63,571 nucleotides of DNA from a virus (lineage: Duplodnaviria > Caudoviricetes), in IMG/VR virus record IMGVR_UViG_3300032214_000555, positions 1-63,571 of that record. One strand, given 5' to 3'. Of this stretch, positions 7,144 to 20,036 are shown piece by piece (positions within the stretch are counted from its first letter, which is position 1; the number at the start of each line of letters is the position of its first letter). A program made the translations under genes and the position numbers. Under the pieces are notes generated by a model. That model saw nothing but the letters and a program-made list of their open reading frames with translations. It ran no database searches and was not told the origin of the DNA.

Positions 7144-7153
7144 CATATAGCAA

Positions 7154-7591
7154 ATGAAACTAAAAGACTTATTAAACGAAGACACCTGGAAACTTGAAAA
7201 AGGAGAAATCCTTTTCAATGGCAAAAAAGTAGGAACATTCGAATACGAATATGAAGCAGATGCGTTTTGGATTGATGATATAGATAAAAACGGAACAAAG
7301 GGATTTGGTAGTAAAGAAAAGGCTATTCAATGGTTGAAAAAAAATAAAAAAGCATATTTGGATAGACACAATAATGATTACCATCGTAAAGAACGAGATT
7401 ATTTAAGTCGATTTGATTATTACGATGAATCGGTAAATGAGGTGAAGATACATCACATGGCAAGAGAAGGAGCATTGGATAATCTTAAAGAAGTAATCTT
7501 AAACATTGGACCATTTAGTAAAGAGGTGGTTAAACATTGTGAAGCAGCAATTAAAATTATAGAAAAATTTGACTCCAATTATAAACGATGA
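7154..7591 (+). CDS. MIKL-leader protein
   Basis: N-terminus MKLKDLLNE. Confidence 0.8.
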   Translation: MKLKDLLNEDTWKLEKGEILFNGKKVGTFEYEYEADAFWIDDIDKNGTKGFGSKEKAIQWLKKNKKAYLDRHNNDYHRKERDYLSRFDYYDESVNEVKIHHMAREGALDNLKEVILNIGPFSKEVVKHCEAAIKIIEKFDSNYKR

Positions 7592-7863
7592 TATTAGCAT
7601 TTAAAGTAGATAGAAACGTATATAGAGTAGAGTTTCAAACATCTGTTTCCAAAAACAATGTTATATCTTGTATTCCAAAGACAACAAAAGATGCGGATAC
7701 TGTGCAAAGTATAATATCACAATCACAACCAATGGTGGTTCAGAAAGGAATACAACAATACATAGAAAAACAATTAAAATTACCTATTGAAATCGAAAGA
7801 GATTACAACGGACCTGGATTTGGTTTTACAGTTGATTTATACGATTTAGTGAAAAAATTATAG
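7588..7863 (+). CDS. Hypothetical protein
   Basis: Coupled ORF (ATGA overlap). Confidence 0.7.
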   Translation: MILAFKVDRNVYRVEFQTSVSKNNVISCIPKTTKDADTVQSIISQSQPMVVQKGIQQYIEKQLKLPIEIERDYNGPGFGFTVDLYDLVKKL

Positions 7864-7864
7864 T

Positions 7865-8935
7865 ATGGGTAAATACATTGTTACATCTGGATGTTCATTT
7901 ACTAGACAATCTAAAAGAGTTGGATTAACTGGCAATGAATATGATTTTATGGATGATTATGTTTCTCAATGGAAATGGCCTCATTTTATAAAAGAAGAAT
8001 ATCCTAATTATGAAGTTATTAATTATGGTAATCCAACAAATGACAATACGGTAATTGCCAATTCTATTTTATATGGAGTAGATAAATTATTAAAAAATGG
8101 TGTATCACCATCTGATATAAAAGTAGTAATTCAATGGTCTGGTTGGTCGAGAAATTCTGCATTCATTTCACAATACAAACAAACTGAAATGAATTATGGA
8201 TTACATCAGGATATCAAAACGGCAGATGAAAACGATTATGCTCATATAAATGATTTTATAAATGTTCCTAAAAAGTATGCAGGGGAACATGGATATTTTA
8301 TATTAGCAGCTGGGTATAATTCACCTCATGTAAAAGTTAAATCAATTGATTATTTTACTGAATATGTTAAACACGTATTTTCAGCAGACGAAAGAATGAT
8401 TGAATATATTCGAAACATATTATTGGTTCAAAATTATTTTAAATCAAAAGGAATAGAATATAAATGCTTTACAATGCATAATAATTTTTCAAAAGAATAT
8501 GTAAATGATAACACGTTTCCAATGTGGTGTCCAGACGATTCAAATGAAACAGAAGCACATCATGTTATTTATGATAAATTTATTCCTATAACGTGGAAAT
8601 CGGATTTAGAAAATCAATTTGAAAATAATCCATATATTAGATATTTATATGATATGGTGGATTTTGATAATTTTTGGTTTTATAAAGAAGAAGGTATAAC
8701 TAAATATGGTGGGCAAGTTGAATGGTCTATAAAAAAATATAATTTTGATGAAATATCGGATAATGAAGATATACCAAATATTTTATGGATGGAGTGTATG
8801 ACAAATTGGGATAAAGGATATAGGAGTAAAAAAGATTGGGTTGATTTTTTAAACAAAACAGTATTTTGGCAACACACTTCTCCATACTTAAATAAAAAAT
8901 TTGTAGTAGAAGAATTAAAAGAGTTTTTACAATAA
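7865..8935 (+). CDS. SGNH-hydrolase-like protein
   Basis: IVTSGCSFT block I, VINYG..TNDN, IQWSG..R, terminal His. Confidence 0.7.
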   Translation: MGKYIVTSGCSFTRQSKRVGLTGNEYDFMDDYVSQWKWPHFIKEEYPNYEVINYGNPTNDNTVIANSILYGVDKLLKNGVSPSDIKVVIQWSGWSRNSAFISQYKQTEMNYGLHQDIKTADENDYAHINDFINVPKKYAGEHGYFILAAGYNSPHVKVKSIDYFTEYVKHVFSADERMIEYIRNILLVQNYFKSKGIEYKCFTMHNNFSKEYVNDNTFPMWCPDDSNETEAHHVIYDKFIPITWKSDLENQFENNPYIRYLYDMVDFDNFWFYKEEGITKYGGQVEWSIKKYNFDEISDNEDIPNILWMECMTNWDKGYRSKKDWVDFLNKTVFWQHTSPYLNKKFVVEELKEFLQ

Positions 8936-8949
8936 AAAATAAATTGTGA

Positions 8950-9498
8950 ATGATTAAGTTAAAAGATTTACTTCCAGAAAAAGAAAATTATTTTGAGATA
9001 CCAAAAAATAAGTGGACTCCAATTCTACGTTCTGAACTATCTCGTTTTAAGAAAATAATATATGATTTAATTTCAAATGCATATGCACCAATAGGTGGGC
9101 ACTCTAATGTGAAAGATTCCGATGATTTACCTGATGAGGGTGATTATTTTGATGTGATAGATGTAGATGGAGATAATGAGGTAGATGCAGCAACGGTAGC
9201 AAAACATAAACCAGCAGGTAAGAAGTTTGTTGCGTTAGGACACGATGGTTCATCAGCAGGTAAATCGGCAGCAGTAAATCACCAAATAGATAAGTTAAAA
9301 AGTGGTGGATACTATGTAGAAGTTTCTGGTAAAATGAAAGATATATTTATGGGTAAAGGGTTGGAACCTGTGATGGATGAAAAAGCAGTTCGTAAAGCAC
9401 TACCTGGAAAAGAAATTAAATGGAATGGTGATGGAACATACGATAGAAAAATCGGGGGTTCTATTCACACTAAAATGATGTTTGGAAAACCAAGATAA
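8950..9498 (+). CDS. MIKL-leader protein
   Basis: N-terminus MIKLKDLLPE. Confidence 0.8.
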   Translation: MIKLKDLLPEKENYFEIPKNKWTPILRSELSRFKKIIYDLISNAYAPIGGHSNVKDSDDLPDEGDYFDVIDVDGDNEVDAATVAKHKPAGKKFVALGHDGSSAGKSAAVNHQIDKLKSGGYYVEVSGKMKDIFMGKGLEPVMDEKAVRKALPGKEIKWNGDGTYDRKIGGSIHTKMMFGKPR

Positions 9499-9502
9499 TA
9501 TT

Positions 9503-9778
9503 ATGATAAAGTTAAAATCCCTATTGAAAGAAGGAAAAATTTCTATTTCGGAATTAAATCCAAATGACCAAAAACAAATTAAACAATTAGAAAGTATAAT
9601 TGGGGGAAAGCTCGATACTATTTATGTAGGTGGAAGTGAGCGTTTTGTTGCAAGTATAAGAATATCACCTGGATATAGTGCATACGAATTTACACTAGAT
9701 ATTATGAGAAAATTATTAAAATTTCCCATCACTCATGTTACGGGTGGTCATGATATTGTAAATATTTATTTTAAATAA
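9503..9778 (+). CDS. MIKL-leader small protein
   Basis: Start moved to MIKLKSLLKE. Confidence 0.75.
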   Translation: MIKLKSLLKEGKISISELNPNDQKQIKQLESIIGGKLDTIYVGGSERFVASIRISPGYSAYEFTLDIMRKLLKFPITHVTGGHDIVNIYFK

Positions 9779-9784
9779 GGAAAA

Positions 9785-10537
9785 ATGATAAAGTTAAAAG
9801 ACCTATTAAACCCATCAGTATTAAACGAAGGAGTTGATGACCCTGGTATCCTTAAATGCGTATTTTTGGCAGGAGGACCTGGTAGTGGTAAATCAAGAGT
9901 TGCGGGAGATTTGTTCGGTATTGGTAAAGGATTATCAAATGTATCATACACAGGCCTTAAATCTATTAATTCGGATACCGCATTTGAAGCGCAATTAAAA
10001 AAGAATGGTATTGACCCAAAGGATTTGGGTAAGATTGAAAAAGAAAATCCAGAATTATGGAATGCTATAACTGAAAAGCCAGGCTCACCAAGAGAAAGAG
10101 GTAAAGAAATAACCAATCAAATAAAAAGTTTCTATGAGGCAGGTAGATTGGGTATGATTATCGATGGAACTGGTGATGACACTGCTAAAATTAAAAGACA
10201 AAAAGAACACGCTGAATCATTAGGATACGATACTTATATGGTATTTGTAAATACATCATTAGAAGTTGCGCAAGCTAGAAACGCAAAACGGAGTAGAACA
10301 CTACCAGAAGATTTAGTAACTTCAATTTGGAAAGAATGTCAGCATAATTTAGGGGCATTTCAAACTATTTTTGGTGGTAGTTTCCGTATTATAGATAATA
10401 CCAATGATGGGGATAATCTTACACCAGAAATTAAAAAAGCAGTTGATGATTTTATTAAACAAAGATTATATAACCCAATTGGAATACAATGGGTAGCAAC
10501 TGCAAGAGCATTGAAGAACGCAAATTTAATTAAGTAA
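9785..10537 (+). CDS. P-loop kinase (AAA_33/zeta-toxin-like fold) with MIKL leader
   Basis: Walker A GGPGSGKS; IIDGTG; lid motif ARNAKRSR. Confidence 0.85.
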   Translation: MIKLKDLLNPSVLNEGVDDPGILKCVFLAGGPGSGKSRVAGDLFGIGKGLSNVSYTGLKSINSDTAFEAQLKKNGIDPKDLGKIEKENPELWNAITEKPGSPRERGKEITNQIKSFYEAGRLGMIIDGTGDDTAKIKRQKEHAESLGYDTYMVFVNTSLEVAQARNAKRSRTLPEDLVTSIWKECQHNLGAFQTIFGGSFRIIDNTNDGDNLTPEIKKAVDDFIKQRLYNPIGIQWVATARALKNANLIK

Positions 10538-11250
10538 TGATAAAGGCAGGTAGATACGAATTGGATGAAGCATCGATGGGTAGAATATACCAACACATCG
10601 TTTCTAATCCTAAAACAAATAGTTGGGCAGTAATTACCGCAAGTAGGGGAGAAAACTCTTCTGCTGAAAACGCAAAAAGAAACAAAGATTTAGAGAACGA
10701 TTTGCGTAATTTAGGACTTGGGTTTGTCCATGCAGATGGTATGTGGAGAGAGTGTAAAAACCAAAGTATTGAATATAAAGATTGTCCAGAAGAATTAAAA
10801 GTACCATCGGAAGAGAAAGTTTTATTCATACCAAACATACCAAAAGATAAAGCAGTAGAGCTTGGTAAGAAGTATCAACAAGATAGTGTTTTGTACGCAG
10901 ATGAAGAAACGAAAGCAAGAGGTGAAGCAACTTTTATAGATTCTAAATCAGGAGAAGAATTCAACATTGGTAAATTTACACCTGGCAAAGTAGCACAAGG
11001 TTATACAAAAATGAAAGGTGATAAAGTATTCACTTTTTTACAACCTGGTGAAAAAGGGGAAAAACCAAAAGAAACTCCAAAGAAAGATGATATGAAATTA
11101 AAATCGTTAATTCCGAAAGATATTCTTGATAAAACGGTTAAGAACCCGGAAACAGGAAATATGATTAAATTAAAAACTGCATTAAAGCACGATAAGAATT
11201 CACCTGTTTATAAAACTGCGGTTGTAATGGTTAAACAATCGAAAAAGTAA
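10537..11250 (+). CDS. Hypothetical protein (DUF3293-like)
   Basis: AVITASR..ENAKRN..LGKKYQQDSVL; internal MKLKSL/MIKLK motifs. Confidence 0.7.
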   Translation: MIKAGRYELDEASMGRIYQHIVSNPKTNSWAVITASRGENSSAENAKRNKDLENDLRNLGLGFVHADGMWRECKNQSIEYKDCPEELKVPSEEKVLFIPNIPKDKAVELGKKYQQDSVLYADEETKARGEATFIDSKSGEEFNIGKFTPGKVAQGYTKMKGDKVFTFLQPGEKGEKPKETPKKDDMKLKSLIPKDILDKTVKNPETGNMIKLKTALKHDKNSPVYKTAVVMVKQSKK

Positions 11251-11289
11251 AAAGTTATATATTTAATATTGACAACCAAATAAAATAAA

Positions 11290-11742
11290 ATGAAAAAAGT
11301 ATCGTTTATAGTGGCTTTGATACTCGGAATAAGTATCTCAGCAAGTGCGCAAGAGTGGTTTATAACCGCTACCCGTAGGGGTGGACCATCTGATGGATAT
11401 ATTACAGGTGGATTTATGAAAAAAGGATGGGGATTTTATGCAGGATTACCATACGATGAAGTTAAATCTGCAAATTCAAGTGGTATTGTGATTCCTCCGG
11501 GAGTTAATACATCTACTGGAACAATCTCTGAAAATATGAAGTTTGGTGTTTTACGTCAATTGAAAGAAGATAAAGCGGTTGTAGGATTTGGTATCCAACC
11601 AACACTTGGAGGTAACAAACCAAACGTATTTTTAATGTATAACCCATTAAGACCATCAAGTGTTTTAAACTTATGGACAGTTGGTAATTTAGTAGGTAGT
11701 GATTTTACATTAGGATTAGGAATTTCCTACAAAGTAAAATAA
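11290..11742 (+). CDS. Small outer-membrane beta-barrel-like protein
   Basis: Signal peptide ending ASAQ; C-terminal LGLGISYKVK beta-signal. Confidence 0.7.
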   Translation: MKKVSFIVALILGISISASAQEWFITATRRGGPSDGYITGGFMKKGWGFYAGLPYDEVKSANSSGIVIPPGVNTSTGTISENMKFGVLRQLKEDKAVVGFGIQPTLGGNKPNVFLMYNPLRPSSVLNLWTVGNLVGSDFTLGLGISYKVK

Positions 11743-12098
11743 GGGGATGACTGGATTTTGACAGGAATCTTAATAAGTATAGTTGATGCAAGCAAGGTTA
11801 GATGGAAACCTTAAACCTATCACAGAGTAAAAGGCGAATATAATTACGCAATAGCTGCCTAATCCCAAAGGGAAAAGCGGTAACGGGGTTGAGAGGAGTG
11901 CCTAGGAACAGAATCCTCTCAAATTATTAAGGTCTCGTTGGAGGTGCTACCTATTAAAGTGAATCTCCCACATTTGAGAGTGGCAATGGCAAAATAGAAA
12001 CTCTATATTTTTTCAGTTTAGAAAAATTGAATAAGCTTGTGAATGAAACGTATTGGTTAATTCTTTGGACGTGGGTTCGAATCCCACCATCTCCACCA
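11743..12098 (+). ncRNA. ssrA: tmRNA
   Basis: GGGGATG/CATCTCC-ACCA acceptor with G3:U; T-arm GTGGGTTCGAATCCCAC; tag ORF 11833-11862 GEYNYAIAA*. Confidence 0.95.
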
Positions 12099-12114
12099 AA
12101 AAAATATTAGAAAA

Positions 12115-12150
12115 GACTTGACATTGTTAAAAACTTTTCGTATATTTGTA
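12115..12150 (+). promoter_or_regulatory. Bacteroidetes-type promoter
   Basis: GACTTG...CGTATATTTG (TAnnTTTG -7 element). Confidence 0.8.
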
Positions 12151-12161
12151 TCATAATAAAT

Positions 12162-12236
12162 CGCGGGGAGGATGTTGGTTTCCCACCGGTCTCATAAGCC
12201 AGGTCTACGATAGTTCGATTCTGTCTCCCGCAACCA
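12162..12236 (+). tRNA. trnM: tRNA-Met(CAT), initiator-like
   Basis: C1:A72 mismatch, CAT anticodon, encoded CCA; atypical D arm. Confidence 0.8.
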
Positions 12237-12254
12237 AAAAAGTTTTTTAAAAAA

Positions 12255-12290
12255 GACTTGGATATATGAAAAAAGTTTCGTATATTTGTA
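12255..12290 (+). promoter_or_regulatory. Bacteroidetes-type promoter
   Basis: GACTTG...CGTATATTTG. Confidence 0.8.
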
Positions 12291-12296
12291 AAACCT

Positions 12297-12393
12297 TTAA
12301 GAGTAAGTGTTGAAGCCAACATCTAATAAAACCGAATGTGTGACCACTTCCCAAATGTGGGGGGTTAATAAAGCCGGATACACTCACTCTTAA
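12297..12393 (+). ncRNA. Unidentified ~97-nt structured RNA
   Basis: Own promoter; closing stem TTAAGAGTAAGTGT/ACACTCACTCTTAA; no ORF. Confidence 0.6.
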
Positions 12394-12419
12394 AAAAAAT
12401 TAAAAAGTTTTTGTAAAAA

Positions 12420-12455
12420 GACTTGTAAATACGAAAAAAGTTTCGTATATTTGTA
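12420..12455 (+). promoter_or_regulatory. Bacteroidetes-type promoter
   Basis: GACTTG...CGTATATTTG. Confidence 0.8.
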
Positions 12456-12529
12456 TTAAGAATTTGAAACCAATAGGTGATGAAAGATACTCGGTAATTC
12501 AGATTTAAAACGTTCTTTAAAATATAAGC

Positions 12530-13362
12530 ACATAGTAGACTTGTTCTACATAGTGTACATCGGCAGCATATGGTCGTTAAATAAACTACGAAAGTAGGAT
12601 AAAGTGAAGTGTTTGGTTAAACACTTTGCGGCTTCGCAAGGAGCTCGGGTATGCAAGTGGAATATCATTAGACCTGTGTAGTGAGGGTAACTCCGTAGCG
12701 AAATGGTTAGATGACTGGGCTAAGTAGAAGTTCAGTTGAGGTAGGAATACCGATAAGAATAATCCATAGAATTATTGCAAGAAGTGAGAACTTAATCTCT
12801 TCTCATCATTGCGAAATTCAATATTAAAGGTTGCTTAAAACCGAAAGGTATGATGAAGTACGAGTGGTGTCGTTATCATCCTTACCTACATCTCACCAAA
12901 GAGTGGGTAGTGAAGTAATCTTAAAATATGGTGTTAGAGATAACACATCGAGTAGTTCAGTATTCTGTTGTTCAAAAGATAACGGAGCAGGTTGGTGAAC
13001 CACTACTTGAAAACATCTACAAACCAAAACTCAATTTGCAAATGACGTGCAAACTCAAAAACAAAAAGAGCAAAAGTGTTCACCAGTTACGGATGAAAGG
13101 TGCGTACATAGTAGGGAGTTGTTCCCTGCCACGATACCTCCGCAAGAGGTCTGTGATTCTTTCTAAAAGCTTCTAACATCGCGAGGTGCTAATCTGTTCG
13201 CAAAATAGAAGAAGTAGAGTAAAAAGAGAGTAGTTCGTAACTCAAAGATTGGTTAATCTATAATAACCCGCATTGAATCGTTACTATCCAAAAGATGGTG
13301 GAAAAGTTGGGAAACAATAATCCAACAAAAGATGGTTCGTTTTATGGAGTATTCTCATCCGT
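12530..13362 (+). ncRNA. Large ornate ncRNA, GOLLD-like (boundaries approximate)
   Basis: ~830 nt non-coding, GC-richer, many GNRA-capped hairpins (CTAC-GAAA-GTAG, GCTTC-GCAA-GGAGC, ACC-GAAA-GGT, CATC-GCGA-GGTG); tRNA-array context and size typical of GOLLD. Confidence 0.65.
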
Positions 13363-13408
13363 ATCTTATCTAAATGGTTAAAGTTGGTTCGATTCCGATA
13401 TAGATAAC

Positions 13409-13598
13409 TTCGTAGTGATTTTATAACAATAAAGTGCCTGAGCGGCAGAATTGATTTTTTCACTTAAACTAAAAATCGAATAACGGATAGCTTGGTTTTC
13501 AGTAGGGGATTTTCGCCTTAAACAATCTCAACAACGCGAATTTAGTTGATGGTAAATACGGAATGTAGCTAGTTCCATAGAAAGAACCACCCTACGAA
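13409..13598 (+). ncRNA. Unidentified ~190-nt structured RNA
   Basis: Closing stem TTCGTAG/CTACGAA, internal hairpins, complementary loops TTCGC/GCGAA. Confidence 0.5.
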
Positions 13599-13656
13599 TC
13601 TTTCATTTTTAGCTGAAAATAAAAAAATTACATATATATTATTAAATAACAAAGAA

Positions 13657-13788
13657 ATGAAAACTCTTAACCTACATACGATTAGTTATCAACCGATGCC
13701 AACTTTGGCGTGGGGTGGCACAAACGTGTGTGATTTTAATTCGAAGAGAATTGAAATGCAGTTAGGGGCAGATATAATTTTAGGATAA
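13657..13788 (+). CDS. Leader peptide, 43 aa, containing all 20 amino acids (MKTLNLHTISYQPMPTLAWGGTNVCDFNSKRIEMQLGADIILG)
   Basis: A-rich initiation context; 35 different codons; carries the antiterminator strand AGTTAGGGG (13760-13768). Confidence 0.8.
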   Translation: MKTLNLHTISYQPMPTLAWGGTNVCDFNSKRIEMQLGADIILG

Positions 13789-13809
13789 AAGACTAAAATA
13801 TAATAGTGT

Positions 13810-13847
13810 AACAAACCCCTAACTTAATCAGTTAGGGGTTTTTTGTT
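13810..13847 (+). terminator. Attenuator terminator upstream of the tRNA array
   Basis: AAACCCCTAACT-TAATC-AGTTAGGGGTTT followed by a T tract. Confidence 0.9.
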
Positions 13848-13851
13848 GTTA

Positions 13852-13923
13852 GGGGTGGTAGCTCAGAGGCAGAGCAATTGACTGTTAATCAATAGGTCGA
13901 GATTTCGAAATTCTCCCTCCCCT
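13852..13923 (+). tRNA. trnN: tRNA-Asn(GTT)
   Basis: Cloverleaf; ATTGA-CT-GTT-AA-TCAAT. Confidence 0.85.
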
Positions 13924-13930
13924 CAGTAGA

Positions 13931-13942
13931 GTTCTTTGACAT
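13931..13942 (+). promoter_or_regulatory. boxA-like antitermination element
   Basis: GTTCTTTGACAT; related copies at 12512 and 15803. Confidence 0.55.
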
Positions 13943-14014
13943 GCAGGTATAGCACAACGGTTAGTGCTCTGGTCTTCCAAACCGGAGATTTCGGTTCGAA
14001 TCCGAATACCTGCT
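13943..14014 (+). tRNA. trnG: tRNA-Gly(TCC)
   Basis: Cloverleaf; CTGGT-CT-TCC-AA-ACCGG. Confidence 0.92.
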
Positions 14015-14019
14015 CATAT

Positions 14020-14091
14020 TGCCCGATGGTGTAATGGTTAGCATCACAGATTTTGATTCTGTTAGTTCTGGTTCGAGTCCAGGTCGGGTAA
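14020..14091 (+). tRNA. trnQ: tRNA-Gln(TTG)
   Basis: Cloverleaf; ACAGA-TT-TTG-AT-TCTGT. Confidence 0.92.
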
Positions 14092-14097
14092 CATTAT

Positions 14098-14171
14098 AGA
14101 AGATTAGCTCAGTTGGTTAGAGCATTTGGTTTACATCCAAAGGGTCATAGGTTCGAATCCTATATCTTCTA
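14098..14171 (+). tRNA. trnV: tRNA-Val(TAC)
   Basis: Cloverleaf; TTTGG-TT-TAC-AT-CCAAA. Confidence 0.92.
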
Positions 14172-14176
14172 CAATT

Positions 14177-14260
14177 GGGAGTAATGCACGAATTGGTTAG
14201 GCGCTAGACTGTAAATCTGGTAACCCGCATGGGTAGGTGGTTCGAATCCATCTGCTCCCA
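14177..14260 (+). tRNA. trnY: tRNA-Tyr(GTA)
   Basis: Long variable arm; CTAGA-CT-GTA-AA-TCTGG. Confidence 0.88.
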
Positions 14261-14265
14261 CAATT

Positions 14266-14339
14266 GGAACTTTGGTATAGCTGGTGCGTACGTTGGTCTG
14301 AAAAATCAAAGGAGTGTGATTCGATTTCCACAGGTTCCG
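14266..14339 (+). tRNA. trnF: tRNA-Phe(GAA)
   Basis: TTGGT-CT-GAA-AA-ATCAA; irregular T arm. Confidence 0.8.
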
Positions 14340-14369
14340 CATTTTTTAACAATTTAAACAATTTATATT

Positions 14370-14408
14370 ATGGAAAGTGACAAGTATGATAAACAAAAGA
14401 CTTCGTAG
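14370..14408 (+). CDS. Mini-ORF MESDKYDKQKTS overlapping tRNA-Lys
   Basis: AT-rich initiation region; stop codon lies inside the tRNA 5' end. Confidence 0.35.
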   Translation: MESDKYDKQKTS

Positions 14409-14472
14409 CTCAGTTGGTTAGAGCACCTCACTTTTAATGAGGGAGTCGTGAGTTCGAGTCTCACCGGGGTCA
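14399..14472 (+). tRNA. trnK: tRNA-Lys(TTT)
   Basis: Cloverleaf; CCTCA-CT-TTT-AA-TGAGG. Confidence 0.93.
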
Positions 14473-14478
14473 CAACAC

Positions 14479-14554
14479 AGGGTAGTAGAGGAGTTAGGTT
14501 TATCTCGCTTCGTTTGGGACGAAGAGCACGCAGGTTCGAATCCTGCTTACCCTA
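14479..14554 (+). tRNA. trnP: tRNA-Pro(TGG)
   Basis: Cloverleaf; CTTCG-TT-TGG-GA-CGAAG. Confidence 0.9.
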
Positions 14555-14559
14555 CACAT

Positions 14560-14633
14560 AGGAATATAGCTCAACTGGTTAGAGCATCTGTCTGATACGC
14601 AGAAGGTTGTAGATTCGAGTTCTACTATTCCTA
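14560..14633 (+). tRNA. trnI: tRNA-Ile(GAT)
   Basis: Cloverleaf; TCTGT-CT-GAT-AC-GCAGA. Confidence 0.92.
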
Positions 14634-14634
14634 C

Positions 14635-14708
14635 AATACGAATCATCCCCGTTCCAGACGTGAAAACAATGTGGTTAGAATCCACTACGGGGACAATGTT
14701 CGTATTAA
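14635..14708 (+). ncRNA. tRNA-like mini-module (T arm plus stems, no anticodon arm)
   Basis: ATACGAA/TTCGTAT and TCCCCGT/ACGGGGA stems enclosing GTGG-TTAGAAT-CCAC. Confidence 0.45.
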
Positions 14709-14710
14709 TT

Positions 14711-14781
14711 ATCTCTTTGGTGCAATGGTAGCATATCGGTCTCCAAAACCGCAGATGAAAGTTCGAATCTTTCAGGGGGTG
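14711..14781 (+). tRNA. trnW: tRNA-Trp(CCA)
   Basis: Cloverleaf; CGGT-CT-CCA-AA-ACCG. Confidence 0.88.
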
Positions 14782-14787
14782 CATAAT

Positions 14788-14860
14788 AGTTCTATGGTGT
14801 AATTGGATAGCACCTTTCACTACGGATGAAAAAGTTAGGGTTCGAGTCCTTATGGAACTA
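14788..14860 (+). tRNA. trnR: tRNA-Arg(ACG)
   Basis: Cloverleaf; TTTCA-CT-ACG-GA-TGAAA. Confidence 0.92.
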
Positions 14861-14868
14861 CATTAAAT

Positions 14869-14941
14869 GTCAGGTTGACCGAGTTGGTTTAGGTGCTGGT
14901 CTGCAAAACCAGTTACATAGGTTCGAATCCTATACTTGACT
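14869..14941 (+). tRNA. trnC: tRNA-Cys(GCA)
   Basis: Cloverleaf; CTGGT-CT-GCA-AA-ACCAG; U73. Confidence 0.92.
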
Positions 14942-14946
14942 CAGAT

Positions 14947-15020
14947 TGCGAAATGGTAGAGTTGGTTTCATACGGTGCTCTCATAAGGCATAGACTTAGG
15001 TTCGAATCCTAATTTCGCAA
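14947..15020 (+). tRNA. trnM: tRNA-Met(CAT), elongator-like
   Basis: Cloverleaf; GTGCT-CT-CAT-AA-GGCAT. Confidence 0.85.
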
Positions 15021-15025
15021 CATAT

Positions 15026-15102
15026 GGTGTTTATAGTGTTAGTGGTTAGCACGTCAGTTTGTGGTACTGATAGCATGGGTTCGAATCCCATTAATCACCC
15101 CA
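15026..15102 (+). tRNA. trnH: tRNA-His(GTG)
   Basis: G-1:C73, encoded CCA; TCAGT-TT-GTG-GT-ACTGA. Confidence 0.92.
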
Positions 15103-15104
15103 AT

Positions 15105-15194
15105 AGAGAGTTACCCAAGTTGGTGAAGGGGTCTGTTTGCTAAACAGATAGGTCGGGTTATACCGGCGCAAGGGTTCGAGCCCCTTACTCTCTA
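15105..15194 (+). tRNA. trnS: tRNA-Ser(GCT)
   Basis: Long variable arm; TCTGT-TT-GCT-AA-ACAGA. Confidence 0.92.
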
Positions 15195-15202
15195 CTGAAT
15201 AT

Positions 15203-15275
15203 GTCCGTATGGTGGAATGGAAGACACGGTGGTCTTAGAAACCACTTTTTGCAGGTTCGAGTCCTGCTATGGATA
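15203..15275 (+). tRNA. trnL: tRNA-Leu(TAG), short variable region
   Basis: GTGGT-CT-TAG-AA-ACCAC; Leu-type D arm; only 5 nt of variable region. Confidence 0.85.
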
Positions 15276-15291
15276 CTTAAATTTGAATACT

Positions 15292-15747
15292 ATGGTTTAC
15301 AAAAGATTAAGTGATGGGAGTAAAGTTCAGTTAGATGAGTATATCAAAGAATATATGACTCAATTCGAAGATGTGGATATACTTATAGGTTGTGATTCAC
15401 AGAACTTTGCAAGAGGAACTGTATATGCGATTGTAGTTGCATTATACAGACCAGGTAAAGGTGCTCACGTTCTATTTAACAGATGGACTGCACCAAAAGA
15501 ATACACTCGTTCTATCAGATTGTTAAACGAAGTATGGTATGCAATTGAAGTTGCTGAAAAGTTAAGAGAAGCAGATGTTCCAAAAGTAAAATGGATTGAT
15601 GTGGATTTGAACCCAGACCCAAGATACAAATCTAATGAGGTGTTCAGACAAGCAGTTGGTATGGTTGAAGGAATGGGTTATCAGGTAAGATACAAAACAT
15701 TAGGTCCTATTGCAACTTATGCAGCAGACCATTTAGTAAGGGTGTAA
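15292..15747 (+). CDS. RNase H-like YkuK (DUF458) family protein
   Basis: IGCDSQ, RLLNEV, DVDLN, YAADH motifs; start moved downstream of tRNA-Leu. Confidence 0.85.
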   Translation: MVYKRLSDGSKVQLDEYIKEYMTQFEDVDILIGCDSQNFARGTVYAIVVALYRPGKGAHVLFNRWTAPKEYTRSIRLLNEVWYAIEVAEKLREADVPKVKWIDVDLNPDPRYKSNEVFRQAVGMVEGMGYQVRYKTLGPIATYAADHLVRV

Positions 15748-15763
15748 AATAAAATTGAGAAAA

Positions 15764-15799
15764 GACTTGATTTTATCAAATAGTTTTCGTATATTTGTA
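15764..15799 (+). promoter_or_regulatory. Bacteroidetes-type promoter for the second tRNA block
   Basis: GACTTG...CGTATATTTG followed by boxA-like GTTCATTGAAAT. Confidence 0.8.
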
Positions 15800-15829
15800 A
15801 AAGTTCATTGAAATAGTGGTGATTAAATT

Positions 15830-15903
15830 GCTCCGTTCGTCTAATTGGTTAGGACATCCGCCTTTCACGTGGAAGCTTACGGGTTCGAGTCCCGTACGGA
15901 GTA
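15830..15903 (+). tRNA. trnE: tRNA-Glu(TTC)
   Basis: Cloverleaf; TCCGC-CT-TTC-AC-GTGGA. Confidence 0.93.
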
Positions 15904-15905
15904 CA

Positions 15906-16094
15906 ATGTATCAAATGTGCAGTGAAAATTGATGTAGGCATACATTGATGAGGTGGGTTCGAATCCCAACTTACTAATACCCTTCAAACCAGGTGGGAGC
16001 CAAGTAACTGAAAACACATTATAGCCAGTTGGGTTGTGCACCTCGTCCGAGAAACCCTAATAGTTCCTAATAGGTTGGTATGGAACTGATACAT
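15906..16094 (+). ncRNA. Unidentified ~190-nt structured RNA with T-loop
   Basis: Closing stem ATGTATCA/TGATACAT; internal GGGTTCGAATCCC; several hairpins. Confidence 0.6.
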
Positions 16095-16098
16095 ATTT

Positions 16099-16171
16099 GC
16101 TTTCGTAGCACAATTGGTAGTGCAGCTGATTTGTAATCAGCAGGTTGTAGGTTCGAGTCCTATCGAAAGCT
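16099..16171 (+). tRNA. trnT: tRNA-Thr(TGT)
   Basis: Cloverleaf; GCTGA-TT-TGT-AA-TCAGC. Confidence 0.93.
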
Positions 16172-16172
16172 C

Positions 16173-16355
16173 AAAACAAATGACGACTGAGGAGAAACCC
16201 CTCGGTATATGAAATCCAAAATGGTCCTGTTGAAACCGGAATAGTCATACAGGTCAGGAGAGAGTTACTATAAGCAGGGAGTAATTAACCCGAAGCGAAA
16301 ATGTAACCACCAGTAATGGTCATGATGTGTAGAAGGGACACAAAAAGTTTGTTTT
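16173..16355 (+). ncRNA. Unidentified ~180-nt structured RNA
   Basis: Closing stem AAAACAAA/TTTGTTTT; hairpins ACTGAGG/CCTCGGT, GTTAC/GTAAC, TGTGT/ACACA; CCTGT/ACAGG pseudoknot potential. Confidence 0.55.
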
Positions 16356-16360
16356 AATTT

Positions 16361-16436
16361 GGTTCATTGGTTGAATGGTCACAATACCACCCTGTCACGG
16401 TGTGTGGTACGGGTTCGAATCCCGTATGAACCGCCA
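16361..16436 (+). tRNA. trnD: tRNA-Asp(GTC)
   Basis: Cloverleaf; CACC-CT-GTC-AC-GGTG; G73, encoded CCA. Confidence 0.92.
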
Positions 16437-16460
16437 TAGTTTAATTTAAATAAATAAAAA

Positions 16461-16802
16461 ATGAAAGAAGTAGGATTAAGCATTATGTTGTTTTTCAACA
16501 CTTTGTTGGGTGGTGTAGACCCGGCATTATCAAATGAAAGAGGTGCTATTGCAAACATTAAAAAAGAAATTAAAGTTTTGCAAAGGCAAATAGAATGGGA
16601 ATCTGTAACAACAACAGATTATGCAACCCGTTGGGTGAAGATTAAAAAGATTAATGATAAGATTGACAACCTTAAAAATCAGATTAAAACAATTGAAGTT
16701 CGTGCCAAAATAAAAGAGAAGTGGGCAGCAGAAGATTCATTGGAAATTATTAAACAATATCCACCGTTAAAGTTGGAAGAATCAAAATCTGAAAACATTT
16801 AA
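16461..16802 (+). CDS. Hypothetical protein with N-terminal hydrophobic segment and coiled coil
   Basis: ORF between tRNAs with A-rich start context. Confidence 0.7.
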   Translation: MKEVGLSIMLFFNTLLGGVDPALSNERGAIANIKKEIKVLQRQIEWESVTTTDYATRWVKIKKINDKIDNLKNQIKTIEVRAKIKEKWAAEDSLEIIKQYPPLKLEESKSENI

Positions 16803-16807
16803 AGTAT

Positions 16808-16881
<74 letters not shown>

Positions 16882-16901
16882 CTAACCATCCAATTTAATT
16901 T

Positions 16902-17255
16902 ATGATTAACAAAGTAATTGTATGTTTATTAATTAGTTACAATGTATTTTCAACAGATATTGTTACAGTAACTACCTATTCAGCGAAAGCATCGCAAACG
17001 GATAGCACACCTCGAATTACTGCAAGTGGGTTCAAAATCAAACCAAACACTACACGCATTGTGGCAGTTAGTAGAGATTTAAAAAGAAAATACAAGTTTG
17101 GTACAAGAGTTAGGATTACGGGCATCGGTAAGCACAATGGTGTTTATGTAGTAAGAGACGTGATGAATAAACGATTTACCAAACGTGTGGATATTCTAAT
17201 CAGTAGAAAGGATAAACACACAAAATTTAAAAGAGCTAAACTTACAAGAGTGTAG
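16902..17255 (+). CDS. 3D-domain (MltA/RlpA-like double-psi barrel) protein
   Basis: TTYS..QTD.TP.ITASG, VAVSRDL, VVRDVM..R...RVDI. Confidence 0.85.
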   Translation: MINKVIVCLLISYNVFSTDIVTVTTYSAKASQTDSTPRITASGFKIKPNTTRIVAVSRDLKRKYKFGTRVRITGIGKHNGVYVVRDVMNKRFTKRVDILISRKDKHTKFKRAKLTRV

Positions 17256-17264
17256 GTTTAGTTT

Positions 17265-17351
17265 GCTTCGGTGGGGGAATAGGTAGACCCGCAAGACTTA
17301 AAATCTTGTTTTTGTAAAAGAGTGCTGGTTCGATTCCAGTCCGAAGTACCA
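17265..17351 (+). tRNA. trnL: tRNA-Leu(TAA)
   Basis: Variable arm; CAAGA-CT-TAA-AA-TCTTG; encoded CCA. Confidence 0.93.
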
Positions 17352-17353
17352 AT

Positions 17354-17427
17354 GGGGATTTAGTTCAGTTGGCTAGAACGCTTGATTTGCATTCAAGAGG
17401 TCGTAGGTTCGAATCCTATATTCTCCA
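17354..17427 (+). tRNA. trnA: tRNA-Ala(TGC)
   Basis: G3:U70; CTTGA-TT-TGC-AT-TCAAG. Confidence 0.93.
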
Positions 17428-17429
17428 CA

Positions 17430-17744
17430 TTACACCATCTCTAATTGACATATAGGAGGAAACAACTTATGGACATATTATCATTCGGTTTAGGGATTGC
17501 AGTGGTTGTGATTATTGGATTATCAGTAATTTCGGTTATTGCTTTTGTTAAGTCAAGGAAAATAGGAAAACAAATAGAGCAATTGGAATCAGAAATTTAC
17601 AGAGAAATACACTCTCAAATAACTGATACGCATCGTAGAATCGATGACTTTGAAAAAGATGTTTATTCTCAATTAGATTCGAGATTAGACAAATTAGAAA
17701 ATAAACTAACAACTAAAAAATAAAGTTGATTAGGGGTGGTGTAA
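17430..17744 (+). repeat. 20-bp inverted repeat (RNA stem) enclosing a CDS
   Basis: 17430-17449 pairs fully with 17725-17744 using 4 G:U pairs. Confidence 0.8.
17469..17723 (+). CDS. Single-TM coiled-coil membrane protein
   Basis: N-terminal TM helix; ends DSRLDKLENKL; start moved to ATG. Confidence 0.75.
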   Translation: MDILSFGLGIAVVVIIGLSVISVIAFVKSRKIGKQIEQLESEIYREIHSQITDTHRRIDDFEKDVYSQLDSRLDKLENKLTTKK

Positions 17745-17752
17745 GAATATTT

Positions 17753-17860
17753 GCCGGTGTGGCGGAACGAATGGGAAGTACAACCATTAGACGTACCTAT
17801 ACTAGTGTGGTGGTGTAACCGAAAAGGACATCGTGTGAGTAACCAATCTCTCCACCGGCA
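17753..17860 (+). ncRNA. Degenerate/enlarged tRNA-Leu-like RNA
   Basis: Perfect acceptor GCCGGTG/CACCGGC-A, Leu-type D stem with inserted hairpin, aberrant anticodon and T loops. Confidence 0.6.
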
Positions 17861-17867
17861 CCTCATT

Positions 17868-17944
17868 GGACTTGTAGCTCACTCGGTTAGAGCAACTGAC
17901 TCATAATCAGTAGGTACTTGGTTCGATTCCAAGCTGGTCCACCA
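17868..17944 (+). tRNA. tRNA(CAT), probably Ile2
   Basis: ACTGA-CT-CAT-AA-TCAGT; Ile-like body; third CAT tRNA in the array. Confidence 0.85.
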
Positions 17945-17960
17945 ATTAAAATTTAAACTT

Positions 17961-18527
17961 ATGGCAAATCATGTAGAGAATTACATTAGAGTTAAGAACT
18001 GTAATCAAGCAGTTATTGATGAGTTACAAAGAATCTTTTCTGTAAAGGATGAGATTGGAGATACACATACAATAGACCTTGTCAATGGTATATTTGATAT
18101 GGATTGGAAACAAGAAGATTATGATAGGGGTTGGATGCATGAATATGTAGGTTCTAAATGGGTATATGGGCAAATTGAGGGAGAGTGGGATACTGAAATT
18201 TCAATCAGTCTAACATCAGCATGGGATGCGGTAAATCCTTTATTGAAACAATTATGTTCTAAACTGATATGTATAAAAGAAAATGTTGTAATTGAAAACA
18301 GATTTGAAGATGAGAGTTTAGAACCAATGGGTGTAGCATATATTTCATCTGTATATGATTCAGTTGAATATCTTGATGAAGAAGTGGATGTATATAAGTT
18401 CTACGAAGATGAAGAATATAGAGATGAAGTTTATGAAATGCTAGAACAACTAATGGATGAAGAAAGAAGAATCCATCAGGAAGTTTTAGATGAATTAGAA
18501 GAAGAAAGAAAACAGAAAGAAGAGTAA
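17961..18527 (+). CDS. Acidic hypothetical protein (DUF1281/Api92-like)
   Basis: MANHVEN start; W...VGSKW; LTSAWD. Confidence 0.7.
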   Translation: MANHVENYIRVKNCNQAVIDELQRIFSVKDEIGDTHTIDLVNGIFDMDWKQEDYDRGWMHEYVGSKWVYGQIEGEWDTEISISLTSAWDAVNPLLKQLCSKLICIKENVVIENRFEDESLEPMGVAYISSVYDSVEYLDEEVDVYKFYEDEEYRDEVYEMLEQLMDEERRIHQEVLDELEEERKQKEE

Positions 18528-18532
18528 AATAA

Positions 18533-18618
18533 GGAGAGTTGGCAGAGTTGGTCTATCGCGATAGTCTTGAAAACTATTGACTGTTACAGGTCCATTGGTT
18601 CGAATCCAATACTCTCCT
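18533..18618 (+). tRNA. trnS: tRNA-Ser(TGA)
   Basis: Variable arm; ATAGT-CT-TGA-AA-ACTAT. Confidence 0.93.
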
Positions 18619-18623
18619 CACAT

Positions 18624-18797
18624 TGTGGTATGGTGAAAAATGATTAGCACGTGTGTTAATCTGGCAGACACACCCTCCTGTCTCGGGGGCGGGGATAAAG
18701 AAATAGATAAGTAATATGGGGTAGACCACCAAGCTGGCCAGCGGATGTTACTTATTGAATCTCCCTTTGGATGGTTCGAATCCTCCTACCACAGCCA
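18624..18797 (+). ncRNA. Giant (174-nt) tRNA-Asp(GTC)-like RNA
   Basis: 7-bp acceptor plus G-CCA, D-loop hairpin insertion, CCCTC-CT-GTC-TC-GGGGG arm, ~79-nt structured variable arm, GGTTCGAATCC T loop. Confidence 0.75.
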
Positions 18798-18851
18798 CTA
18801 TTTGGAAATGTAAAATATTTTCCGTATATTTATATTAATAAAGGAAAAATT

Positions 18852-19109
18852 ATGGCAGAATTTAGCAAACAATGGTGTGAAATCCATGACCCCCAAATGC
18901 CTTGGGATTTTGATATTGAAGAAATTGCAACAGAAATACCAAGAGGGTATTACAAACTAATGATTTGTGAAGGTTTTGGATTTATCGGTATTGGTGTAGG
19001 AATGGATAGAGAAATACAATTGTTATTTAGAGATGGGGAAGACGGGTTTGATAAAATGAACTACAAACACTTCATCAAAAAACAAAAAGAATCATCGGAT
19101 GGAATCTAA
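18852..19109 (+). CDS. Hypothetical protein
   Basis: MAEFSKQWC..ICEGFG; start moved downstream of the RNA gene. Confidence 0.75.
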   Translation: MAEFSKQWCEIHDPQMPWDFDIEEIATEIPRGYYKLMICEGFGFIGIGVGMDREIQLLFRDGEDGFDKMNYKHFIKKQKESSDGI

Positions 19110-19302
19110 TGAAGCACAATATTTAGAGTTAATGGATAGAATACATATAGCATCCGTTAATTTAGATGACCACATTTTAAATCACCCTATTTCATTAGCA
19201 AATCCTGATGTGAAACATCATTTATCAGTTGCATTGGATAATTTACTAATCGCATATTCAAATTTAGGTTATATAGAAGATGAGAATAACTCACATAAGT
19301 GA
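19099..19302 (+). CDS. Hypothetical protein
   Basis: Overlapping operon ORF. Confidence 0.65.
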   Translation: MESNEAQYLELMDRIHIASVNLDDHILNHPISLANPDVKHHLSVALDNLLIAYSNLGYIEDENNSHK

Positions 19303-20035
19303 TACACACAATCACCACTCAAAATTACAGGAAGATTTACCAGGCGGAGACCTTTTAATCCATAGTGGTGATTTCACGTCCATTGGTAGAAAATCCGAAG
19401 TAGAACGATTTATCAAATGGTTCAACAATGTGGATAATTACACATACAAAGTTTTCATCGCAGGTAATCACGACTTAACATTTGAATCGGAAGCACTACA
19501 CCGTCAGAAATCGGAATGGTTTGATGGTCCGAGAGCATACGATACTAAACCTGGTATTGGAAAACCTTATTGGTTATGTGAGATATTGGAAGTAGGATTA
19601 GCAGGTTCTGTATTCTATTTGGAAAATGAAACAATTGATATTGAAGGTGTGAAGATTTGGGGTTCTCCTTGCTCTCCTACATTCGGTAGAGATTGGGCAT
19701 TCAATGTGGATAGGGGTGAGCCATCTGAAAAACTTTGGAGTACAATTCCAATGGATACTGATATTGTAATTACACATGGACCTATGTATGGTGTATTGGA
19801 TGTAGCATACAATAGTGGATTGCCAGTTGGGTGTGAAGATTTGTACAATAGATTACAAATAGTAAAACCAAACCTACACTTTTGTGGACACGTTCATGAG
19901 GGATACGGTTACAAACAATTAGGAGATATGTATTCATTTAATGGTGCATCTGTATCTTTGGAGTATCAGTATAAAAATAAACCAATCAGTTTTGATTACG
20001 ATTTTAATACAAAAGAGATAAACTTTTTAATGTAA
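19280..20035 (+). CDS. Calcineurin-like metallophosphoesterase
   Basis: SDTH, HSGD, GNHD, THGP, GHVHE motifs. Confidence 0.93.
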   Translation: MRITHISDTHNHHSKLQEDLPGGDLLIHSGDFTSIGRKSEVERFIKWFNNVDNYTYKVFIAGNHDLTFESEALHRQKSEWFDGPRAYDTKPGIGKPYWLCEILEVGLAGSVFYLENETIDIEGVKIWGSPCSPTFGRDWAFNVDRGEPSEKLWSTIPMDTDIVITHGPMYGVLDVAYNSGLPVGCEDLYNRLQIVKPNLHFCGHVHEGYGYKQLGDMYSFNGASVSLEYQYKNKPISFDYDFNTKEINFLM

Positions 20036-20036
20036 T

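Follow-up and report, generated by a model that had tools for sequence, protein, structure and literature searches.

The virus record IMGVR_UViG_3300032214_000555 (Duplodnaviria; Caudoviricetes), analysed here over its whole stretch of 63,571 nucleotides (nt; a viral record of 63.6 kb estimated to be 31% complete, hereafter the window), carries on its plus strand a short open reading frame (ORF), an intrinsic terminator and an array of transfer RNA (tRNA) genes in close succession, and our subject is the switch that the ORF and the terminator appear to form ahead of the array. The ORF (13657..13788), which we call the leader, has 43 codons, encodes the peptide MKTLNLHTISYQPMPTLAWGGTNVCDFNSKRIEMQLGADIILG and ends in a stop codon at 13786-13788. 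The terminator (13813..13849) is a hairpin at 13813-13841 with a T tract at 13839-13849, and tRNA-Asn begins at 13852 as the first of 16 tRNA genes that follow one another without interruption, in agreement with an initial annotation of the sequence, which had placed 16 tRNA genes a few nucleotides past the terminator. This first block (13852..15276; Asn, Gly, Gln, Val, Tyr, Phe, Lys, Pro, Ile, Trp, Arg, Cys, Met, His, Ser and Leu, called by ARAGORN and Rfam) is too close to the terminator to have its own promoter, since only 2 nt separate the T tract from tRNA-Asn. A second group on the same strand (15830..18619) holds eight tRNA genes (Glu, Thr, Asp, Arg-tct, Leu-taa, Ala, Met and Ser-tga) interleaved with small ORFs, which brings the total to 24 up to position 18619, and both blocks combined cover 20 amino acids.

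The leader peptide reaches 18 amino-acid types by codon 27 and 20/20 by codon 33, most of them present only once, and is written in 35 distinct codons that include all four NCG codons (ACG, CCG, GCG and TCG), four Gly codons (GGT, GGC, GGG and GGA) and four Leu codons (CTT, CTA, TTG and TTA); the counts given in the initial annotation were all exact on recount. Around and within this frame, four segments of the plus-strand transcript can pair with one another. Segment 1 (CTCTTAAC, 13664..13671), which the initial annotation did not include, lies in codons 3-5 and has as its partner segment 2 (at 13761-13768) or, in an alternative conformation, segment 4. It is followed by the leader interior (13673..13757), where a helix (13673-13680/13725-13732) surrounds a hairpin (13696-13701/13706-13711) and a second hairpin follows (13733-13742/13748-13757). 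Segment 2 (AGTTAGGGG, 13760..13768) occupies codons 35-38 and would be the 5' strand of an antiterminator; it repeats the letters of segment 4, the terminator 3' arm (AGTTAGGGG, 13830-13838), and, as had been proposed, can pair with segment 3, the terminator 5' arm (CCCCTAACT, 13816-13824, with the loop at 13825-13829 next to it). Also as proposed, an inner stem of the antiterminator (13777..13799; ATTTTAG at 13777-13783 with CTAAAAT at 13793-13799) places the stop codon in its loop.

Pairing of segments 2 and 3 (2:3) amounts to 9 base pairs (bp) at -14.6 kcal/mol, and pairing of segments 1 and 2 (1:2), which appears in minimum-free-energy folds of 13640-13855 and of growing transcripts, is predicted at -8.7 kcal/mol. 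For naked RNA, 1:2 is the predicted pairing as long as the 3' end is at 13770-13800, 2:3 takes over by position 13826, and the full-length states are near equal (-60.9 versus -60.0 kcal/mol, 0.9 apart). We interpret this arrangement as a ribosome-mediated (leader-peptide) transcription attenuator that would exert feedback control on phage tRNA genes, and on the strength of the sequence comparisons that follow we put the probability of this interpretation at roughly 80%.

Within the window itself, composition is weak evidence. The probability of 20 types within 33 codons is 6.0e-4 under the codon usage of the window and 5.6e-4 to 1.0e-3 in random sequence of the local base composition; the leader is the sole ORF with 20 types among those of at least 33 codons (277 with an ATG start, 437 when GTG and TTG are added), but about 0.17-0.4 all-20 ORFs are expected by chance per window, so the single-window observation is not by itself beyond chance. 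The calculation of this probability, which the initial annotation had suggested, is therefore not decisive for the window alone, and the matter was settled by relatives: it is the comparative data, not the single-window statistic, that establish the reality of the all-amino-acid leader. Codon diversity is also high for this peptide (35 versus 29.1 +/- 1.8 expected, P = 0.001), the codon-adaptation value is low (0.55 versus 0.71 in phage genes) and NCG codons are frequent (4/43 versus 1.7% in phage genes), although constraints of RNA structure could be an alternative source of all three features.

Relatives were reached through the protein encoded within the tRNA array (15217-15747), which led to 13 viral loci. 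The order GOLLD RNA, gap and tRNA array, as called by Rfam and ARAGORN, recurs in five of these loci and in four more contigs, and with the window counted a small ORF followed by a terminator occupies the leader position in 10 of the 10 loci examined that combine GOLLD with a tRNA array. A degenerate pattern of the ORF start then matched 33 viral and 85 metagenome stretches, and the resulting leader set comprises 63 unique ORF variants encoding 56 unique peptides of 31-53 amino acids (aa), four ORFs cut by contig ends having been dropped. All 20 amino acids occur in 51 of the 56 peptides, against a null probability of 0.004 (39 aa) to 0.037 (53 aa); four peptides lack Glu only and one 31-aa form lacks Ala and Asp. 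At 70% identity the peptides fall into 12 clusters, nine of which have all-20 members, with only 17-67% identity between cluster representatives. When drift from an all-20 ancestor was simulated with as many changes as are observed, the property was kept with a mean probability of 0.06 (range 0.000-0.257), at which at least nine of 12 all-20 clusters have P = 1.9e-9 (5e-4 at 0.26). Even Cys, single in most of the peptides, stands at position 10, 17 or 25 depending on subtype. The initial annotation had proposed looking for conserved amino-acid diversity in divergent sequence, and by this comparison the leaders conserve composition rather than sequence.

The amino-acid types are also placed where a ribosome could report on them. 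In 50 of the 55 peptides whose ORF can pair with the terminator, which is every checkable all-20 peptide, the set of 20 is already full when the first paired base of segment 2 is reached, and in 36/55 it is full at least four codons earlier; residues past segment 2 add no new type in any leader, and one subtype completes 20 types in 28 codons (null P = 5.4e-5). The types that fall outside the region before segment 2 are Glu (12), Asp (7) and Ala (1). This bears on a further proposal of the initial annotation, that the late Arg(AGA) and Glu codons of the window correspond to tRNAs of the second block: it gains weak support from Glu and Asp, which most often fall outside that region, but the codons for the second-block amino acids Thr, Ala and Asp come early. 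Position before the array is similarly constant, as the initial annotation had expected of relatives, with tRNA-Asn called 62-91 nt past the leader stop in 58 of the 63 variants; in the other five the first call is Gly at 159 (two loci, ARAGORN), Tyr at 92 or Asn at 480, or the variant has no flank. The arrays that the leaders precede have 21-25 tRNA genes; the 14 loci with long flanks carry 23-25, covering 20 amino acids.

Searches beyond these contigs gave little. Among cultured phages (50,697 phage records; blastn with 13362-13860 and tblastn with two leaders) there was no relevant match, the three matches having E = 6, and megablast with 5000-25000 returned tRNA-sized matches only. The sole match of the leader pattern in genome contigs, in a Saprospiraceae metagenome-assembled genome, was rejected as a false positive; it lies inside a gene with no tRNA nearby.

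Several features indicate that the leader is translated. Frame 0 is open from the AUG in 62/62 variants (31-53 codons) and length differences between subtypes keep the frame, while the other two frames always contain stops (+1, at least one, mean 5.0; +2, at least three, mean 4.8). Across 290 same-length pairs the ratio of nonsynonymous to synonymous polymorphism (pN/pS) is 0.56 in frame versus 0.87 and 0.94 out of frame. Upstream, a consensus scan found a putative promoter-like site (13613..13642, plus strand; CTGAAA, 16-18 nt, TATATT/TATTAT; 9/12 matches) that lies 15-17 nt 5' of the AUG and would imply a very short 5' untranslated region. Among relatives, 57 distinct upstream sequences have a TATA-rich motif 3-20 nt 5' of the AUG; in the window the motif is not enriched (six matches versus 7.1 expected). 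A sigma-70-type site at 13751-13778 (TTGAAA, 16 nt, TATAAT; 11/12) shares the best score of the region, 11, with 12118-12146, and it falls within the leader ORF, where it overlaps segment 2; considered as a promoter for the array, it was rejected because relatives, compared by eye, do not conserve it, and it is probably a chance occurrence. In public RNA runs, a contig from a relative's RNA library spans the equivalent of 13464-13715 at a depth of 8 and the bins 13716-13817 are uncovered, contigs of this kind showing neither transcript ends nor absence of transcript.

The pairing itself covaries. A terminator lies 19-55 nt past the stop in 62 of the 63 variants, the remaining one having just 59 nt of flank, and the complement of the terminator 5' arm (5-11 bp) is found in 62/62; it ends 7-29 nt short of the stop in all but one of them, where it ends immediately past the stop. 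In an alignment of 56 distinct sequences the antiterminator 2:3 is paired in 95.7% of cells, with double changes at one pair (GC 31, AU 25) and at another (UA 43, UG 7, CG 6), the compensatory changes that the initial annotation had suggested seeking. The terminator is paired in 99% of cells, and in the same columns its 3' arm gives CG 31, UG 15 and UA 10 at one pair and AU 43 and GU 13 at the other. Because segment 2 keeps Watson-Crick pairing with segment 3 where segment 4 often wobbles, segment 2 is selected to pair and is no mere copy of segment 4. Counterparts of the inner stem occur in relatives (ATGTAG/CTACAT, GTAGT/ACTAC or GTGGT/ACCGC), though not in every subtype.

Segment 1 is conserved in position and in pairing. 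For segment 2, the best pairing partner in 53 variants begins at ORF nt 6-7, with a mean 1:2 energy of -8.3 kcal/mol versus -4.55 kcal/mol with shuffled N-termini, and TAAC/GTTA has become TGAC/GTCA in one subtype. RNAalifold predicts 1:2 with pairing of segments 3 and 4 (3:4) for 29 C-type sequences and 2:3 with pairing of segments 1 and 4 (1:4) for 26 A/B-type sequences. In the leader interior, the central hairpin shows 8, 12 and 13 double changes on three pairs among 26 sequences and is also found in the C type; within it the CC of the invariant Pro13 codon pairs with the GG of the invariant Trp19 codon. On this evidence, 1:2, 2:3 and 3:4 covary as they do in classical attenuators.

If the leader senses the tRNAs whose genes it precedes, phages with partial arrays should carry partial leaders, and this goes beyond what the initial annotation had proposed. 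Viral contigs were scanned without reference to any leader for tRNA D-arms that begin 2-28 nt past a terminator tail. Of the 83 junction sites, a fixed pipeline then kept 32, namely those where an ATG ORF of 12-75 codons can pair through its 3' part with the terminator 5' arm at -9 kcal/mol or lower. Among them are more all-20 leaders, with different N-termini, before complete arrays (L157, MATLTIHTLSYLPTQKCAWGGNRVFNMIEDRSKLRDVKRG; also L150, L155, L156, L158 and L164). Others stand before partial arrays, such as MKKTTTYQTQYQPKGGKP before Lys-Pro-Gly-Gln-Tyr-Thr tRNAs. By a rule fixed in the script, a block was taken as the tRNAs up to a gap of >300 nt, and a leader as residue 2 to the codon before segment 2. 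The leader of L165 then has 18/19 residues in the set G, K, P, Q, T and Y (P = 1.9e-8), that of L200 25/27 in C, I, L, N, R, T and V (P = 6.5e-9), that of L233 23/32 in D, E, M, N, Q and Y (P = 1.7e-6) and that of L159 22/25 in its block set (P = 2.5e-5), with P of 0.001-0.025 for L251, L242, L221, L250 and L202.

Enrichment reached P < 0.05 in 11 of 17 families. Summed over all 17, z was 50.2, versus 1.0 +/- 5.8 when leaders and arrays were re-paired by permutation (0/20,000 reach it), and 66 of the 67 block amino-acid types were found in the leader, versus 40.1 +/- 4.3 when permuted (maximum 57; 0/20,000). The 15 pipeline-only families gave 60/61 types (0/20,000) and 155/342 residues in the set versus 72.8 expected, and with each locus's own proteins as background P was <0.05 in 10/15 families (Fisher's combined P = 4e-25). 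Left out of the family tests were the complete arrays L150, L155-158, L164, L184 and L226 (P 0.18-0.89), which are uninformative because their amino-acid set is nearly everything, and the family duplicates L152, L161, L190, L207, L223 and L229; the candidates L203, L237 and L247 were dropped for want of a called tRNA. Partial-array phages thus carry leaders enriched in exactly the amino acids of their arrays, the appearance expected of a sensor of those tRNAs, and because these leaders name the tRNAs behind their terminator, the all-20 leader of the window is the complete-set case of a general rule.

The match can extend to codons. In L182 the leader runs CAA AGA CAA TTG tct TTA GAA CAA CTA ATA TTA, and the tRNAs after the terminator are Leu(taa), Arg(tct), Leu(caa), Glu(ttc), Ile(tat), Leu(tag) and Gln(ttg), whose codons match the leader run. 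Some arrays (among L182, L190, L160, L163 and L245) also contain unusual isoacceptors, for example Ile(tat), Lys(ctt), Glu(ctc), Leu(aag) and Gln(ctg), and their leaders use matching ATA and AAG codons. Separately, leaders that precede unrelated partial arrays (L159, L165, L181, L182, L200, L221, L223 and L251) share the N-terminal pattern MK(T/N)(I/L/V/M)N.(H/Y/N)(T/M) and have a TATA-rich motif 3-12 nt 5' of the AUG, which suggests that the modules have a common origin and that their transcripts are perhaps nearly leaderless.

These comparisons of relatives, in which a translated frame, four covarying segments, a position before tRNA genes and a match between leader and tRNA composition are all evident, support what the initial annotation had proposed, a translated all-amino-acid leader whose 3' part acts as an antiterminator in competition with the terminator before the array. 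The mechanism we envisage is as follows. The transcript would start just 5' of the AUG, and a ribosome would translate the 43-codon leader while RNA polymerase advances. With smooth decoding the ribosome would be on or just past segment 2 and the inner stem as segments 3 and 4 emerge; 3:4 would then fold, and transcription would end at the T tract, short of tRNA-Asn. A ribosome held at any codon 5' of segment 2 would leave segment 2 free, the 2:3 antiterminator would form and the polymerase would enter the tRNA genes. The leader carries at least one codon for each amino acid with a downstream tRNA, and because the window leader covers all 20, shortage of any one aminoacyl-tRNA should raise tRNA transcription, with negative feedback on tRNA supply as the net effect. 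Candidate triggers are host tRNA loss late in infection, starvation and, speculatively, tRNA-cleaving defences. The promoter, timing and physiological trigger of the attenuator are what we infer here, and the polarity, in which a stall would give read-through, is drawn from the geometry and from classical attenuators. Because 2:3 is predicted to beat 1:2 once segment 3 exists, untranslated RNA may also read through, unlike in trp. With most amino acids occurring once, the device should respond best to severe tRNA loss and not to mild starvation, which fits, but does not show, the idea of a tRNA-depletion sensor.

Several observations weigh against this interpretation. Segment 1, in codons 3-5, is free behind a ribosome stalled in mid-leader, and 1:2 pairing there would favour the terminator; the polarity accordingly depends on the predicted energies given above for 2:3 and 1:2. 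Most amino acids are single in the leader, where classical attenuators have codon runs, and this may mean low sensitivity to mild shortage. The all-20 rule is not strict: the four peptides without Glu stand beside arrays with tRNA-Glu (L037), so there is no one-to-one loss within the all-20 family, and divergent syntenic relatives have fewer types (13 in 24 aa in L010; 17 in 27 aa in L017). In six of the 17 partial-array families enrichment falls short of significance (L151, 0.058; L181; L182, 0.077; L188; L189; L245), family representatives were chosen by hand and the enrichment rows for L160 and L010 were added by hand from earlier outputs. The RNA helices explain much of the peptide conservation (for example Pro13 with Trp19) and confound pN/pS, to which we therefore give moderate weight, and the leader ORF of the window has no Shine-Dalgarno sequence.

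The strongest alternative, though in our judgement an unlikely one, is a translation-dependent switch that reads ribosome availability or elongation speed, as an infection-stage timer would, or one of opposite polarity in which a stall leads to 1:2 and 3:4 pairing and so to termination. It can draw on segment 1 remaining free once a ribosome has stalled past about codon 10, on the prediction of 1:2 until segment 3 is made and on the nearly isoenergetic full-length conformations, as well as on the single occurrence of most amino acids, yet a speed sensor needs no match to the downstream tRNAs, and the leaders both cover nearly every block type and, before partial arrays, consist almost only of block types. 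Opposite polarity would turn tRNA genes off when their tRNAs are short, which makes little sense, and would have to act against a 2:3 pairing predicted to be much more stable than 1:2.

We consider it very improbable that the element works through RNA only, like a riboswitch or T-box, with the ORF there incidentally and a ligand or tRNA bound by the multi-helix domain that 1:2 closes. The layout does resemble an OFF riboswitch, with a P1-like helix (1:2) that shares its 3' strand with the antiterminator, and the interior helices are conserved and covarying in a region with a fold z-score of -5.9; the 3' half of the interior, however, cannot be aligned between subtypes, and a cmscan of 10500-19500 gave no match within 13362-13851 at E <= 1 to any Rfam family, whether T-box, riboswitch or other. 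The consistently open frame 0, the stops in the other frames and the in-frame length changes are not accounted for by an incidental ORF, and an RNA-only switch predicts neither the all-20 property nor the match between leader and tRNA sets.

Slightly less probable again is a conserved small protein with its own function, as a regulator or membrane peptide, beside an ordinary terminator and a tRNA array read from elsewhere. Conservation of the ORF with pN/pS below 1, and an N-terminal motif, MK(T/N)xNxH/Y, common to many loci, would suit such a protein, but identity between clusters falls to 17-30% with composition kept instead, and the conserved residues fall on RNA helices. Nor would such a protein need the complement of the terminator arm that the 3' end of its ORF always carries, or a composition that tracks the downstream tRNAs, and the 2 nt between T tract and first tRNA leave no promoter space for an array read separately. 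A chance ORF in a non-coding spacer beside a terminator, of which a fraction of one is indeed expected in the window alone, is already refuted by the comparative results, given that the property holds in 51/56 homologous peptides and 9/12 divergent clusters and recurs in leaders found without using the ORF.

The attenuator that we favour has parallels among known systems and differs from each of them. The classical leader-peptide attenuators of amino-acid operons are trpL, hisL, leuL and pheL. The phage element shares with these a short translated leader, four segments that pair as 1:2, 2:3 and 3:4, a terminator just before the regulated genes, selection of the pairing by ribosome position and leader codons cognate to the regulated supply. 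It differs in its target, phage tRNA genes in place of biosynthetic enzymes, and because tRNA genes, not biosynthetic or related enzymes, follow, we do not place it in a named leader family. It differs also in having one or a few codons per amino acid, for up to 20 amino acids over 28-43 codons, in place of a run of one amino acid; in having segment 1 at codons 3-5, with the regulatory codons between segments 1 and 2 in a structured domain; and in a 2:3 pairing predicted to be stronger than 1:2, with 1:4 also possible. Multivalent attenuators exist, the ilvGMEDA leader with Ile, Leu and Val codons and the thr leader with Thr and Ile codons, which likewise use a single leader for several amino acids, but these cover two to three related amino acids, whereas the phage leaders cover from two to 20, namely the set of the tRNA genes that follow.

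Attenuators of genes for the translation apparatus include pheM, the leader of pheST, and the T-box leaders of aminoacyl-tRNA synthetase genes. There, as here, the charging or decoding state feeds back on genes of the decoding machinery through a choice between terminator and antiterminator, but pheM and T-box leaders regulate synthetase genes for one amino acid, whereas the phage element would regulate tRNA genes; the T-box, moreover, binds uncharged tRNA without translation, and no T-box match occurs at the phage leader. In ermC-type leader ORFs, a drug and the nascent peptide are both needed for the ribosome stalling that induces resistance genes. Stalling in a leader ORF that turns on downstream genes is thus common to the two systems, and general translation damage can cause such stalling; unlike the phage leaders, ermC-type leaders do not have a composition matched to tRNA genes. 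A leader-peptide attenuator before E. coli tRNA-Phe genes, considered as a precedent, was not borne out for pheV, where the upstream 100 nt contain a promoter-like site and no leader ORF. Of the classical cases, pheL is described as a leader-peptide attenuator in PMC3082878. A search of full-text literature, which lay outside subscription journals and supplements so that a prior description is possible, found no description of a leader-peptide attenuator before tRNA genes or of an all-amino-acid leader. What sets the element apart from the known attenuators considered here is the target (tRNA genes), the setting (a phage) and the use of the leader as a list of up to all 20 amino acids.

Why phages carry tRNA arrays is debated, with proposals that include codon usage, shut-off of the host and evasion of defences that target tRNAs, and to our knowledge essentially nothing has been established about how such arrays are regulated. 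We think it somewhat more probable than the contrary that the window exemplifies a widespread, undescribed class of phage leader-peptide attenuators before tRNA genes, whose leaders list the amino acids, and often the codons, of the tRNAs that they control. Such leaders would give each array demand-driven feedback, and the all-20 version would sense decoding globally and turn on a complete replacement set upon any host tRNA loss, which could include cleavage or depletion by defences. If this is true, tRNA genes can follow the feedback logic of amino-acid operons, scaled from one to twenty amino acids; the design would offer synthetic biology a compact natural sensor of decoding capacity, and the leader/terminator signature could be used to annotate regulated tRNA islands in viral metagenomes.

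The leader belongs to a wider translation-related island of transfer-messenger RNA (tmRNA), GOLLD, leader and tRNA array that is kept in relatives. In the cmscan of 10500-19500 only GOLLD, the tmRNA and tRNAs exceed Rfam cut-offs. The GOLLD RNA (12948-13361, probably from about 12100; RF02032, 282.8 bits versus a cut-off of 150) lies ~300 nt 5' of the leader, and the phage-encoded tmRNA (11743-12098) has the tag GEYNYAIAA; in the close relative L003 the predicted tag is much longer, at 26 residues. In four RNA or RNA-labelled libraries GOLLD contigs reach depths of hundreds to tens of thousands, and several RNA contigs end at 13361. GOLLD is often near phage tRNA islands, according to the part of bioRxiv 10.1101/2024.12.08.627333 consulted, which makes no mention of a leader ORF or attenuator beside it. 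The leader is nevertheless not tied to GOLLD, because two megaphage records with GOLLD (LR756502.1 and LR745206.1) have neither a leader nor an adjoining tRNA array, and partial-array leaders occur in other contigs; in Acinetobacter phage Ab15 a partial GOLLD match lies within the tRNA array, with no evident leader.

Between GOLLD and the leader is a conserved element of ~100 nt (window 13480-13610; L007 2790-2900; L014 1085-1195; L015 2170-2285), closed by GTAGGGG/CCACCCTAC, with double changes at four pairs in four sequences and no Rfam match; an RNA-library contig covers 13427-13555 at a depth of about 50. The element may be an unnamed non-coding RNA and, being absent from L003, L010, L017 and L019, stands outside the attenuator. 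A lipoprotein-like small ORF (MKKVLAIFAV..LASCGG, then a Thr/Ser/Asp-rich tail) lies between this element and the leader at L014 1267-1443 and L015 2365-2544. Adjoining the GOLLD 3' end, 13362-13420 is a tRNA-like remnant with the T-arm GGTTCGATTCC, at whose place relatives carry either tRNA-Gly, as one gene or two, or odd tRNAs (L003 3283-3431; L015 2004-2076, with a 4-base anticodon call).

Among the neighbouring genes, an S-adenosylmethionine lyase-like protein (PF23780; 10537-11250) is encoded 5' of the RNA island. The protein within the tRNA array is RNase H-like (15289-15747; PF04308, E = 7e-18) and is conserved there in 13 related contigs; its start is probably the Met at 15289, since the listed start at 15217 overlaps tRNA-Leu. 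Directly past the array, at 19280-20035, lies the gene for a calcineurin-like metallophosphoesterase (PF00149).

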